Source: Escherichia phage PP01. Taken from it: a stretch of 64,000 bases of DNA. The notes below the pieces were generated by a model. It saw only the letters and a list, made by a program, of their open reading frames with translations, was not told where the DNA came from and did no database searches. The translations under genes were made by a program, and so were the position numbers. The stretch lies in sequence record NC_054930.1. One strand, given 5' to 3'. The number at the start of each line of letters is the position of its first letter. The stretch's first letter is position 1. Below are positions 31,771-40,842 of the stretch, in pieces.

Positions 31771-32244
31771 TTATTTGAACGATTTAACGTACTGAATAGA
31801 ACCTTTACTATTCACAAAGGCAATTTTACCATTTTTGTTATACATGGTAGCAGTACGTTGATAGCCATAAGTTTGTTTACCAGATTGATAACCAACTAAT
31901 GCAAAATTATCTTCACCCATTTTATTCTGTTTAGCGCGAATGCGTTCATGACCATGTGCCATAAGAACCTTAGCATCACCAGTTGCAATGGATCGACGAG
32001 TTTTTTCATCTTCAACTGTATTAACAAAGTCGTCAAATGAATCAAATTTAGCATGAGATTTATTATACAGTTTTCCATCTACTGCATAATTATATCCTTG
32101 TACATCCATCTCAACTTCTGTACCATCATCTAATACAGCAGTAATTTTCTGTCCTTTTTTAAATTTCAAAAGATCAGTAAAAGATTCAGCAATAATTTGA
32201 GAATTAATAGCTGCTTCAGTAATAAATTCTTGATATGTTTTCAT
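31771..32244 (-). CDS. Internal (head-packaged) protein with capsid-targeting leader, 157 aa
   Basis: N-terminal MKTYQEFITEA matches the T4 IPII/IPIII capsid-targeting sequence; located beside e like the T4 ipII/ipIII genes. Confidence 0.7.
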   Translation of the reverse strand: MKTYQEFITEAAINSQIIAESFTDLLKFKKGQKITAVLDDGTEVEMDVQGYNYAVDGKLYNKSHAKFDSFDDFVNTVEDEKTRRSIATGDAKVLMAHGHERIRAKQNKMGEDNFALVGYQSGKQTYGYQRTATMYNKNGKIAFVNSKGSIQYVKSFK

Positions 32245-32260
32245 GTGTATCCTTTAATTT

Positions 32261-32578
32261 TTATTCTTTAGGGAAGTTTTTAGAATATGCATCATAAAGC
32301 TTATTTCCAATACGGCGGAAAACTCTAGCCGCAAAACGATTTTCTGGGTTTTTAATCATGATTTGCATCATATAAGTACCCGCGTCAGAAAGAGCTTCTT
32401 CATAGTACCCGTTAATTTCTTTAAGAGTCCTACGTTTACCGCCAGGACCATCAACAGTGATTTTCCATTTACCTGTAGAAGTGCGACTTGGCGGCTCAAC
32501 TTGTTCAATCCAGATATAACCGCCTTCTACACGTTGTCCTGCAGCAGATTCTGCAATAAATTCTTGATAGGTTTTCAT
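32261..32578 (-). CDS. Internal (head-packaged) protein with capsid-targeting leader, 105 aa
   Basis: N-terminal MKTYQEFIAESA; early promoter upstream. Confidence 0.7.
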   Translation of the reverse strand: MKTYQEFIAESAAGQRVEGGYIWIEQVEPPSRTSTGKWKITVDGPGGKRRTLKEINGYYEEALSDAGTYMMQIMIKNPENRFAARVFRRIGNKLYDAYSKNFPKE

Positions 32579-36032: not shown

Positions 36033-36308
36033 TTATTTCATATTATTGAAATATTCTTCTGCGATTTCGTCGTTATCATGGTAAACTTTAGAAGACAGTT
36101 TAACATAACTTTCAGCAGTGAACATGTTAATCACAACCTTTACAGTATACCACTGACCGTCTTCATTGCCCATTACCGCATAAGTTTCAAACATCGGATG
36201 ATCAGGACCGATAACTTTAATATCATTCACTGTACGACCGAAATCTTCTGAAACACATTTCATAAAGAAGTTGAACAGTTCGCCGTAATTATCCATTTCG
36301 TTCTCCAA
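36033..36308 (-). CDS. Hypothetical protein, 91 aa
   Basis: ORF track; early promoter directly upstream. Confidence 0.55.
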   Translation of the reverse strand: MENEMDNYGELFNFFMKCVSEDFGRTVNDIKVIGPDHPMFETYAVMGNEDGQWYTVKVVINMFTAESYVKLSSKVYHDNDEIAEEYFNNMK

Positions 36309-36334
36309 GTTGTTTTCTGTATCAGTAGTTGATA

Positions 36335-36395
36335 GTTGTATAGTACCATGGAAGAACAGGGATGTAAACAGTTTTGTGAAAAATTTTTAAAAAAT
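36335..36395 (-). promoter_or_regulatory. T4-type early promoter
   Basis: Plus strand gttgtatagtaccatgg...gatgtaaacagttttgtgaaaaattttt. Confidence 0.65.
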
Positions 36396-36505
36396 TTTAG
36401 AGAATTCTAGGGTCAGGAGGGGCAATTAAAAGGTAGGATAATATATTATAAAGGGTATAAACCAAATGATGCCTAGAGAGGCCCGGAAAGGCCTAGATAC
36501 CAAAA

Positions 36506-36529
36506 AGCCCCAACCTTTCGGCTGGGGCT
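36506..36529 (-). terminator. Rho-independent terminator hairpin (repeat copy 1)
   Basis: agcccca...tggggct stem with a U-run on the minus transcript; near-identical copy at 37063-37086. Confidence 0.6.
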
Positions 36530-36536
36530 AAGAATG

Positions 36537-37010
36537 TTATTTGATTTGTTTAGCAGACCAAATGCGGTCTTTAATAATTTTTTGGATGTCTTCAACATAC
36601 TCTAGGTCATGAGCATGTGGATTATCTTTGAAACTATAAGCACGAGCTAGCTTTTGGCCTTCAGTTTTGATTACTAAAAGCTCTTTAAGGATAGCTTCAT
36701 ATCTGGAGATAATTCCTTTAACAATATTTTTTTCTTGTGCAGCTTTAGGATCTGCTTTAGGAGCAGGTTTACCCGAAGCCTTTGCAAAAGCAGCGCCAGT
36801 AGCAACTAGACTTTTCCAGGCCATACTAACCGCATTTCCTGTAAATCCTTCTGCTTTCATGCCGCGAGCAAATTGGAATCGCGATTCGTCAGAAGCATCT
36901 TTATAAGAATATTTACCCGCTGCAATGGCTGCTTTTGCGACAGCTTGAATTTCGGTGCTAGATGCTTCATTTAACACCGCTTCATTTAAAAATTGAGTAT
37001 ATGATTTCAT
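36537..37010 (-). CDS. Putative internal-protein-like gene with capsid-targeting-like leader, ~158 aa
   Basis: ORF track gives 36537..37187; start moved to internal MKSYTQFLNEA (resembles MKTYQEFIAEA), which has an AGGAAA ribosome-binding site and a TATAAATA late promoter ~40 nt upstream; Ala/Lys-rich basic protein. Confidence 0.55.
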   Translation of the reverse strand: MKSYTQFLNEAVLNEASSTEIQAVAKAAIAAGKYSYKDASDESRFQFARGMKAEGFTGNAVSMAWKSLVATGAAFAKASGKPAPKADPKAAQEKNIVKGIISRYEAILKELLVIKTEGQKLARAYSFKDNPHAHDLEYVEDIQKIIKDRIWSAKQIK

Positions 37011-37048
37011 CTTATTTCCTGTTTTAATTCGTGGATTTAATATACTAA

Positions 37049-37056
37049 TATTTATA
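37049..37056 (-). promoter_or_regulatory. Late promoter (TATAAATA)
   Basis: Plus strand tatttata, reverse complement of TATAAATA, located between the terminator hairpin and the 158-aa gene's start. Confidence 0.6.
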
Positions 37057-37062
37057 CTAAAA

Positions 37063-37086
37063 AGCCCCAACCTTTCGGTCGGGGCT
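37063..37086 (-). terminator. Rho-independent terminator hairpin (repeat copy 2), 3' of the tRNA/stable-RNA block
   Basis: agcccc...ggggct stem with a U-run on the minus transcript. Confidence 0.6.
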
Positions 37087-37094
37087 AAGCCTTG

Positions 37095-37400
37095 CGGCAA
37101 CCTTGTCGGGGTTCCACCTGCTAAGGCAAGTGTTTGTACGAAACGCCGGGATTCGAACCCGGTTATTAAGTAGTTGACGCTACTCAATATTTTTAAAAGG
37201 CCATATCTCGACCATATCCGAACGTTCCGTCAAAAACGCTACTCGGCTTATGGCAAAGATATTTCCTCGAATCGATAATTCGGTGCGCCGTTTCTGCTGT
37301 GATATAAGGGGGCATTAACAAAACATAAAGATTTATTAATGCCAGTCCTTACCCAGGGAACATCAGTCCGACGACTTACCGGTAGCGACCCGGTTTCTTG
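37095..37400 (-). ncRNA. tRNA-like stable RNA region (candidate counterpart of T4 species 1/2 RNAs)
   Basis: No protein-coding signal; T-arm-like CCGGGTTCGAATCCCGG on the minus strand (~37146-37162) without canonical acceptor pairing; lies between tRNA-Arg and a terminator. Boundaries not determined. Confidence 0.35.
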
Positions 37401-37402
37401 TT

Positions 37403-37479
<77 letters not shown>

Positions 37480-37482
37480 TAA

Positions 37483-38148
37483 TTAAAATTTCATTTTTCG
37501 ACCTTTAAACCATCCTTCTGGAATTGGGTCAGTTTTCTTAATACGTTTAGAAACTTTTTCATCCAATGAATGAATCCACATCATGCCAAATTGGGAATTC
37601 TTTTCACCTTGTTGGTGTTTATTTCTGGCGTGAGATTCTTTCATTTTATTAATAGTTTCAGGAGTATGGGTCTTACCCAAGAAAGATTTAGTATTTAAAA
37701 ATTTCTCTCTATACTTAGGATTATCCCAAAGCTGTTTAAACCTTTCTGAACCCATTTTACGATATTTTTCTTTAAGGTCTGGGTCGTTCTCAAATCTGGT
37801 TTTAAAAGCGGCAGCTCCTTTTAAGGAAGCTTCTTTCTTTTTATCCAAATATTCTTTAGTGTTTAAATGGTCCCAACCACCTTCACCACCTAATTTCAGA
37901 TTATAAACATCAGGGCGCTTTAAAAACTCTTCAGTCACAATATTCTTTTCTGACTCAAACATAGAGGTTTTATCGTCAAAGAACTCTAATATTTCTTTAG
38001 AAAAATTTTCTATACCATATTTATCTTGGGCTCTTTTTAATAATTTACCAGAACCCATATATCCATCATCTAAATTTTCGGTAGAATGAGCGCCTATATA
38101 GATTTTATTATTAATTTTATTTGTTATTTTATAAATGTAATGGAACAT
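37483..38148 (-). CDS. segB: GIY-YIG homing endonuclease SegB
   Basis: 221 aa; GIY-YIG motif HYIYKITNKINNKIYIGAHST...YMGSG; embedded in the tRNA cluster as in T4. Confidence 0.85.
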   Translation of the reverse strand: MFHYIYKITNKINNKIYIGAHSTENLDDGYMGSGKLLKRAQDKYGIENFSKEILEFFDDKTSMFESEKNIVTEEFLKRPDVYNLKLGGEGGWDHLNTKEYLDKKKEASLKGAAAFKTRFENDPDLKEKYRKMGSERFKQLWDNPKYREKFLNTKSFLGKTHTPETINKMKESHARNKHQQGEKNSQFGMMWIHSLDEKVSKRIKKTDPIPEGWFKGRKMKF

Positions 38149-39744: not shown

Positions 39745-39769
39745 TTTATTCTCCTCAGTAGTTGATAGG

Positions 39770-39830
39770 GTAATAGTATCACTACTAAAACCCCGTGTAA
39801 ACAACTTTGTGAAATTATTTTAAATCTTCT
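39770..39830 (-). promoter_or_regulatory. T4-type early promoter (repeat copy A, 3' of the ipI-locus gene)
   Basis: Plus strand ggtaatagtatcacta...gtgtaaacaactttgtgaaattattttaaatc; near-identical to the copy at ~40100-40160. Confidence 0.6.
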
Positions 39831-40072
39831 AATCGTTTCTTCATCTTAGAACCATTTTTAGCGATTTCTCCTGCGTCAGAGCATAATGCTAAAAGTGCTT
39901 TAACTTTAGTTTGGTCTCCTTTAAAAGACGAAGGATCGACTGCAGCAGCAAGTTCTTTAATACGAGAGAAAAGACGCTCAGCTTCAGCTAAAGCCATTCC
40001 AAGCTTTACTTCCATACCATGAGAAGATTCAGTGATAATAGTTTCTGTAGCAAACTCTTTATAAGTTTTCAT
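39815..40072 (-). CDS. Internal-protein-like gene with capsid-targeting leader at the ipI locus, 85 aa
   Basis: N-terminal MKTYKEFATETIITE leader; located between the tRNA region and 57B, where T4 carries ipI; sequence differs from what I recall of T4 IPI. Confidence 0.65.
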   Translation of the reverse strand: MKTYKEFATETIITESSHGMEVKLGMALAEAERLFSRIKELAAAVDPSSFKGDQTKVKALLALCSDAGEIAKNGSKMKKRLEDLK

Positions 40073-40099
40073 TTTATTTTTCCTAATTAATTTTGATGA

Positions 40100-40842
<743 letters not shown>

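Follow-up and report, generated by a model that had tools for sequence, protein, structure and literature searches.

Gene content and signals of the rnaC–e.8 interval

We analysed a 64,000-nucleotide stretch of the genome of Escherichia phage PP01 (NC_054930.1), hereafter the window, whose best public match is Yersinia phage PYps55T (Tequatrovirus; 99.3% identity). In the part of the window considered here the gene order is that of T4, with seven tRNAs, a GIY-YIG homing endonuclease, tRNA-Arg, rnaD, rnaC, e.8, e.7, e.6 and e.5 all on the minus strand. An open reading frame that we refer to as ipA (37010..36537, minus strand; nucleotide start MKSYTQFLNEAVLNEA, protein start MKSYTQFLNEAVLNEASS) lies between rnaC upstream and e.8 downstream, its nearest neighbours by alignment to annotated T4. 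Because Rfam holds no model matching rnaC or rnaD, these two RNAs were placed via the T4 alignment. The features of the interval, all on the minus strand, are the following (a slash marks a predicted cleavage point).

36033..36296, minus strand: homologue of e.8 (protein start MDNY), assigned by alignment to annotated T4
36340-36368, minus strand: early-type promoter TTTACA-17-TACTAT, upstream of the e.8 homologue
36506..36529, minus strand: downstream terminator hairpin H, AGCCCCAGCC-GAAA-GGTTGGGGCT plus T-run, right copy of a direct repeat (repeat unit 36497-36532)
36537..37010, minus strand: ipA coding sequence, 157-aa precursor plus stop codon (PHROG 2280)
36727..36733, minus strand: A7 homopolymer, ipA nucleotides 278-284, at the boundary between linker and C-terminal domain
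36966..37010, minus strand: putative capsid-targeting leader MKSYTQFLNE/AVLNE/A, ipA codons 1-15
37016-37020, minus strand: ribosome-binding site AGGAA, ~5 nt 5′ of the ipA ATG, read from the sequence
37049..37056, minus strand: T4-type late-promoter motif TATAAATA, at the same position in homologues
37063..37086, minus strand: upstream terminator hairpin H, AGCCCCGACC-GAAA-GGTTGGGGCT plus T-run, left copy of the direct repeat (repeat unit 37054-37089)
37137..37400, minus strand: small stable RNAs rnaD and rnaC, approximate, carried over from the T4 annotation by alignment
37403-37479, minus strand: tRNA-Arg, directly upstream of rnaD/rnaC

The elements named in a preliminary description of this DNA, namely an ORF of ~158 residues, a ribosome-binding site, the TATAAATA motif and both hairpins, are all present where they had been placed, with the ORF measuring 157 aa. 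Its location of the gene between the e/nudE block and the tRNAs gave the region correctly, and the exact neighbours are now refined to rnaC and e.8. The predicted protein has a pI of 9.5 and is rich in lysine (12.7%) and alanine (17%), and the base composition of the gene (GC 38.4%, GC3 23.4%; window GC 35%) resembles that of neighbouring phage genes. The further claim that ipA has a late promoter and ribosome-binding site of its own is borne out by the motif and the AGGAA, the positions of which are conserved in homologues. The motif begins 3 nt past the T-run of the upstream hairpin and lies ~38 nt 5′ of the ipA ATG. Across the AT-rich window TATAAATA is no more frequent than expected by chance (11 observed, 10.85 expected), so its weight as a promoter derives from conservation of position: (N)ATAAATA occurs at the equal relative position in G50, KK4, KpV477, PhAPEC2 and two metagenomic homologues (L011 and L013).

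A duplicated terminator hairpin and the allelic states of the locus

Each copy of hairpin H comprises a 10-pair stem (7 G–C), a GAAA loop and a T-run, and folds with ~-20 kcal/mol (z = -3.3 and -4.5), a value matched by none of 200 shuffles. Each copy is the core of one unit of a direct repeat (36 nt, 92% identity); one copy is positioned directly 5′ of the ipA promoter motif and the other directly 3′ of the ipA stop codon. With three mismatches allowed, the hairpin pattern is found exactly twice in 64 kb, where 100 shuffles give an expectation of 0 matches. The upstream copy closes the tRNA/rnaD/rnaC transcription unit and does not differ from the one hairpin found 3′ of rnaC in T4, and the downstream copy is followed by GGTATCTAGGCC, as is the single T4 hairpin.

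Alignment to annotated T4 shows one hairpin and no gene in the T4 rnaC–e.8 interval, from which the window differs by exactly one unit, consisting of the late-promoter motif, ipA and the second hairpin. The T4 hairpin has the sequence of the upstream copy in the window and the right flank of the downstream copy, GGTATCTA. The site is likewise empty in T2, T6 and Yersinia phage PST, and the statement in the preliminary description that T4 is not known to have an internal-protein gene here is therefore correct. Other relatives carry a second leader-bearing gene at rnaC–e.8, unrelated to ipA and named ipB (187 aa, start MKTYAEFLTEAA). It occurs without ipA in ESh36 and HY03, and downstream of ipA in G50, KK4 and the Mosigvirus PhAPEC2. 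The presence/absence comparison that the preliminary description had proposed thus finds a polymorphic site with flanking repeats, for which four allelic states are seen (empty, ipA as in the window, ipB, or both), with junctions exactly at the hairpin and its T-run. Each of the two genes has its own (T/A)ATAAATA motif.

An alternative reading is that the two hairpins are ordinary look-alike terminators that play no part in the gain or loss of ipA, as could be argued from the occurrence of hairpin H at this locus only within the window and from the different hairpin with which ipB closes at its 3′ end. We regard this as extremely improbable, given that identity between the copies is not confined to the stem (in the window it covers 36 nt at 92%, and KK4 has a perfect repeat of ~31 nt, as read from the flanks). 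Moreover, the indels that separate T4 from the window and ESh36 from KK4 are bounded at both ends exactly by hairpin and T-run, and the same duplicated hairpin brackets ipA in PhAPEC2, which belongs to a different genus.

The distribution of ipA was surveyed by tblastn against a phage collection, in which the gene was found in 466 records (≥80% coverage) and ipB in 165. The wider 1.2-kb region including the flanks was matched by ~750 records, such that roughly 60% of the sequenced relatives with this locus carry ipA (~466 of ~750), and the earlier portrayal of ipA as an “extra” gene, in the sense of a rarity, does not hold. Carriers include RB32 and RB51, and among the BASEL phages Bas44 (gene bas44_0246) and Bas46, but not Bas37. 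All of the ~500 GenBank copies among the matches listed are annotated “hypothetical protein”. Metagenomic homologues only 30-47% identical to ipA occupy the same place, after the tRNAs and a hairpin, with an ATAAATA motif, and before an early promoter and an e.8-like gene. Since the site is shared even by distant T4-like phages, ipA appears to be old and widespread, and for the same reason a deletion between repeated hairpins is the more likely origin of the empty site in the classic T-even phages, as opposed to an insertion in the window. A recent insertion unique to this phage was also considered and rejected, ipA being widespread and syntenic even in distant relatives.

Exchange of cassettes between genera is suggested by the ipB coding DNA, which is 95.6% identical between PhAPEC2 (Mosigvirus; L003 4089-4652) and G50 (Tequatrovirus; L005 635-1198). 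In the same comparison the DNA identity is 77% for ipA, 88% for e.8, ~68% for e.5/e.6 and 95% for the adjacent RNAs, and it is the excess of ipB over the 68-88% of nearby genes that points to a recent transfer of the ipB cassette. Taken together, the sequence comparisons speak for cassettes that are gained, lost and exchanged at a single locus, and not for hopping between loci, because hairpin H is found nowhere else in the window. The hairpin-bracketed cassette of the preliminary description is thereby upheld as regards its allelic states and its junctions at the hairpin, and set aside as regards movement from one locus to another.

Two further observations concern variation in and around the locus. 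In Escherichia phage vB_Eco_F26 (OP870145; 70380-71290) the match to ipB falls into two pieces and spans 911 bp instead of 561 bp, from which this copy of ipB is judged to carry an insertion of ~350 bp. In addition, the GIY-YIG homing endonuclease of the window (37483-38148, minus strand) lies within the tRNA cluster ~0.4 kb from the ipA cassette and is the counterpart of T4 segB by position and family; several relatives have tRNA-Asn/Tyr or other ORFs at its site instead. Co-conversion associated with homing by this segB-like endonuclease could drag the state of the neighbouring ip cassette along.

The leader of ipA and the internal-protein family

The N-terminus of ipA, MKSYTQFLNE/A, had been likened to the leader of phage internal proteins (Ips), and the likeness extends to the residues that matter: Y4, F7, L8 and E10 of the capsid-targeting sequence (CTS) are all kept. 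Experimental dissection of the CTS of T4 IPIII has assigned residues 4 and 7 to targeting and residues 8 and 10 to processing; cleavage by the prohead protease gp21 follows L/I-x-E (PMC9026906). Applied to T4 IPI, this rule selects ITE/A at residue 19 and yields the 76-residue IPI*, which is the known mature form. The ipA leader contains two motifs of the gp21 type (L8-N9-E10/A11 and L13-N14-E15/A16). Shorter members of the ipA family keep a single site, so the five additional residues of the leader look as if a cleavage site had been duplicated. A third motif, L-K-E ending at residue 110, might be cut as well.

The pattern MKxYxxFxxE occurs four times in the six frames of the window, in each case in an ORF on the minus strand. 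The three occurrences other than ipA lie at the ipI and ipII/III loci:

40072..39815, minus strand: leader-bearing ORF of 85 aa (MKTYKEFATE...) at the ipI locus, resembling IpV of PST
32578..32261, minus strand: leader-bearing ORF of 105 aa (MKTYQEFIAE...) at the ipII/III locus
32244..31771, minus strand: leader-bearing ORF of 157 aa at the ipII/III locus, matching IpIV of PST in length, N-terminus, pI and composition

Judged from these ORFs, the Ip set of PP01 differs from that of T4 at all loci. The leader of ipA is the most divergent of the four, with S3, T5, Q6, L8 and N9 as compared with MKTYQEFIAE. It is nonetheless retained in homologues of only 30-47% overall identity, among which F7 is invariant and position 4 is Y or F. 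BLASTP similarity of ipA to IpIII and to ipB is confined to the leader, and the mature part of ipA is basic and Lys/Ala-rich like those of IPII and IPIII; that the mature parts of Ips are unrelated to one another is described in the literature (PMC12373910). ipA therefore displays the traits of the family in its leader (Y/F4 and F7, and L/I-x-E followed by a small residue), its small size and basic character, its unrelated mature part, and its variability between conserved flanks. It departs from the family in location, at rnaC–e.8 and not at the ipI or ipII/ipIII locus, which is a matter of position only and not of protein properties.

A separate 69-nt repeat containing a T4 early-type promoter (GTTTACA...TACTAT) brackets the ipI-locus gene of the window (39762-39830 and 40093-40161; 86% identical), with a third, weaker copy (62%) upstream of e.8 at 36329-36397. 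Conserved blocks of a similar kind have been reported to flank the classical Ip loci.

Predicted structure and variation of the mature protein

An AlphaFold model of ipA from a 7-sequence alignment (pLDDT 72.7) comprises a confident four-helix N-domain (approximately residues 18-75), a flexible Lys/Pro/Ala linker (KASGKPAPKADPKAAQEK) and a long C-terminal helical hairpin (residues 88-154), with 19 lysines in the mature part. No clue to function emerged from searches with the protein or its model: no match was found in Pfam, among PDB sequences or in PADLOC, and in PHROGs ipA belongs only to an unnamed family of unknown function (PHROG 2280). Foldseek with the model returned nothing from the PDB and only ipA homologues from BFVD. 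A profile was also run against 1.8 billion representatives and picked up 11 proteins, of which those examined are T4-like phage homologues, fragments or chimeras, save for one weak match to a repeat protein.

The domain boundary is a point of variation among database homologues. Frameshifts at the A7 tract, just past the linker, truncate several of them (P0006, P0008 and P0011), in a +1 form ending ...AAQEKKYC before the stop and a -1 form ending ...AQEKIS.KEL..KSF before the stop, and in Tequatrovirus and Mosigvirus versions alike; they could reflect sequencing errors or a genuine mechanism by which the C-terminal domain is switched on and off. The homologue in the Jiaodavirus Klebsiella phage KpV477 (L004, 3495-4030) has the same N-domain, followed by an in-frame TAA at the domain boundary and then by a different C-terminal domain, and is possibly a split or read-through gene. 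A further database protein (P0013) is full-length with the KpV477-type alternative C-domain fused, and the pattern formed by these two sequences indicates domain swapping. A metagenomic chimera of 94 aa (P0010) joins an unrelated N-terminal part, which has a precomputed match to PF26894, to a near copy of the last ~30 residues of ipA (NPHAHSLEYVEDIQKIIKDRIWSAKQIK).

Probable packaging and a proposed role for ipA

A counterpart of ipA in Yersinia phage fD1, g140, is 97% identical and lies at the same site. LC-MS/MS of purified fD1 virions marked g140 as particle-associated (PMC8309999, Table S3; public dataset PXD026812), as it did g129 and g146, the other two CTS-bearing ORFs in the fD1 stretch examined. 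The list of particle-associated products has 113 entries, among them DenV, NudE, lysozyme e and thymidine kinase (PMC8309999, Table S3). Because it includes such obviously non-structural proteins the flag is weak evidence, and by analogy with g140 it supports packaging of ipA without proving it.

The low specificity of that proteome, together with the divergence of the ipA leader, leaves room for a late protein that stays in the cytoplasm and never enters the head, with detection in virions due to contamination and a leader that is a relic of ancestry or of recombination with ip genes. This we consider very unlikely, as ipA retains the four functionally critical residues of the leader, and homologues with as little as 30% identity still share the leader although the remainder of their sequence has diverged. 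An upstream terminator combined with a late-only promoter is also what would be expected of a gene expressed when proheads are assembled, and the adjoining ipB cassette bears the same leader.

We therefore favour, as the probable explanation, a packaged Ip-type protein encoded in a recombining cassette. In the scheme that we infer for its targeting, cleavage positions, injection and anti-defence role, the upstream hairpin would stop early transcription from the tRNA/rnaC unit, and at late times the phage's late RNA polymerase would start at TATAAATA to give an mRNA of ~0.5 kb ending at the second hairpin. The N-terminal capsid-targeting sequence (Y4, F7) would direct the 17-kDa precursor into the scaffolding core, where gp21 would cut it after E10 and/or E15 (L-N-E/A), yielding a mature protein of ~15.5-16 kDa and pI ~9.6. 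The predicted processed N-termini are AVLNEASS... (AVLNEASSTEIQAVAK) after E10 and ASSTEIQ... after E15. Mature ipA would remain in the DNA-filled head, be injected with the genome and act before any phage gene expression, most likely by disabling one of the host's first-line defences, for instance a type IV (modification-dependent) restriction nuclease. Recombination within the ~31-36-nt repeated hairpin, or within the conserved flanks in mixed infection, would allow cassettes to be deleted, added or swapped.

The anti-defence part of this scheme draws on characterised Ips. T4 Ip1, Ip2 and Ip3 each inhibit a distinct GmrSD-type enzyme (PMC12373910), and McrBC is the target of Bas37_0260, a CTS-bearing inhibitor encoded at the ipI locus and described in the HIDEN-SEQ preprint (bioRxiv 10.1101/2025.11.20.689424). 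Deletion of IPIII causes a specific host-range defect that is rescued by leaderless protein expressed in the host (PMC9391042). Because the mature domains of ipA match no known fold or family, such a role can be assigned by analogy only, and to an anti-restriction function of ipA specifically we give, tentatively, about half the credence accorded to the packaged cassette.

Packaged ipA could alternatively serve a structural purpose, as a histone-like, Lys/Ala-rich component of the packaged chromosome that binds DNA and neutralises charge, instead of inhibiting a defence. Its pI of 9.5, the 19 lysines of the mature part and the KASGKPAPKADPKAAQEK linker are compatible with this, and Ip lysines contact DNA phosphates in the T4 head (review PMC3012670). 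However, ipA is dispensable, in that T4, T2, T6 and PST are without the gene, and its presence/absence polymorphism and fast divergence (between genera its DNA is 77% identical, whereas the adjacent RNAs reach 95%) better fit a gene engaged in an arms race. Furthermore, defence targets are known for all four of the four characterised Ips (PMC12373910; bioRxiv 10.1101/2025.11.20.689424). We accordingly rate a purely structural role as unlikely, and retain the packaged, injected Ip-type protein as the preferred explanation.

Significance of the locus

Ips enter the cell before any phage gene expression, and each of the four characterised so far disarms a different modification-dependent restriction enzyme. 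To the two known Ip loci rnaC–e.8 adds a third slot with two leader-bearing genes. A bolder reading would make it a third, so far unrecognised Ip hot spot that supplies at least two injected proteins, ipA and ipB, with targets possibly beyond GmrSD/McrBC; this we consider possible, albeit doubtful. If it is true, the empty site in T4, T2 and T6 accounts for how ipA and ipB escaped sixty years of T-even genetics, and the two genes could explain differences in host range among therapeutic T4-like phages. They are in any event testable candidates for new anti-defence functions and for host-range determinants in therapy phages, and the empty T4 site, with its hairpin retained, offers a natural neutral landing pad for knock-in.

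Comparison with known systems

Two classical Ip loci, with variable leader-bearing genes and conserved non-coding flanks that allow shuffling, were reportedly described by Repoila et al. in 1994, and Comeau et al. in 2007 are said to have recorded more than 30 IP variants, which may already include ipA. Relative to this earlier work, the third Ip locus and the terminator-hairpin repeat would be new. The shuffling principle was generalised as PeSL cassettes by Arbiol et al. 2010 (PMC2839356), and the Ip loci were counted as two both in that paper and in a 2025 paper (PMC12373910). None of five sequence strings matched in the supplements of Silas et al. 2025.

The closest parallel is with the Ips of the T-even phages (IPI-III, IpIV-VI of PST and “internal head protein 7” of T2), which share with ipA a leader ending in L/I-x-E/A or S, a small, basic and Lys/Ala-rich protein, a mature part unrelated to other Ips, and a non-essential, variable gene between conserved non-coding brackets. 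The differences lie in the setting. The T-even genes occupy ipI (57B-tRNA.4) and ipII/III (denV-e), whereas ipA is found at rnaC–e.8, and ipA is flanked by a 24-nt terminator hairpin, as compared with the early-promoter block of ~69 nt that flanks the ipI-locus gene of the window. In contrast to the classical Ips, ipA has only a late-promoter motif between the upstream terminator and its ATG, and its listed copies are all “hypothetical”. Bas37_0260 resembles ipA as an Ip newly recognised by its leader in a non-T4 Tequatrovirus and without homology to IPI-III, but has the classical ipI locus and an experimentally shown target, neither of which holds for ipA.

In its mode of variation the ipA cassette recalls the PeSL (promoter-early stem-loop) cassettes of T4-type phages (Arbiol et al. 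2010, PMC2839356; Comeau et al. 2014, PMC4122927). In both, a gene with its own expression signals lies between repeated regulatory motifs, and a relative without the gene has just one copy of the motif, a state explained for PeSLs by recombination between repeats (PMC2839356). The PeSL unit, however, combines a sigma-70-type early promoter with a stem-loop and is present in many copies across hyperplastic regions, whereas the repeat unit at ipA is the stem-loop alone, in two copies at one locus with the late-type TATAAATA as the intervening promoter; the defining trait of a PeSL is thus absent from the ipA cassette.

The lambdoid morons offer a third comparison, being single genes with their own promoter and terminator between two unrelated transcription units, as is ipA. 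A foreign “moron” origin was rejected, since the GC and GC3 of ipA are native to the phage and a 36-nt direct repeat flanks the cassette. Unlike morons, ipA combines native composition with the same orientation as its neighbours and has its edges at repeats instead of at illegitimate junctions. The rnaC–e.8 locus is also a small and clear-cut case of genes being exchanged as modules at a repeated terminator.
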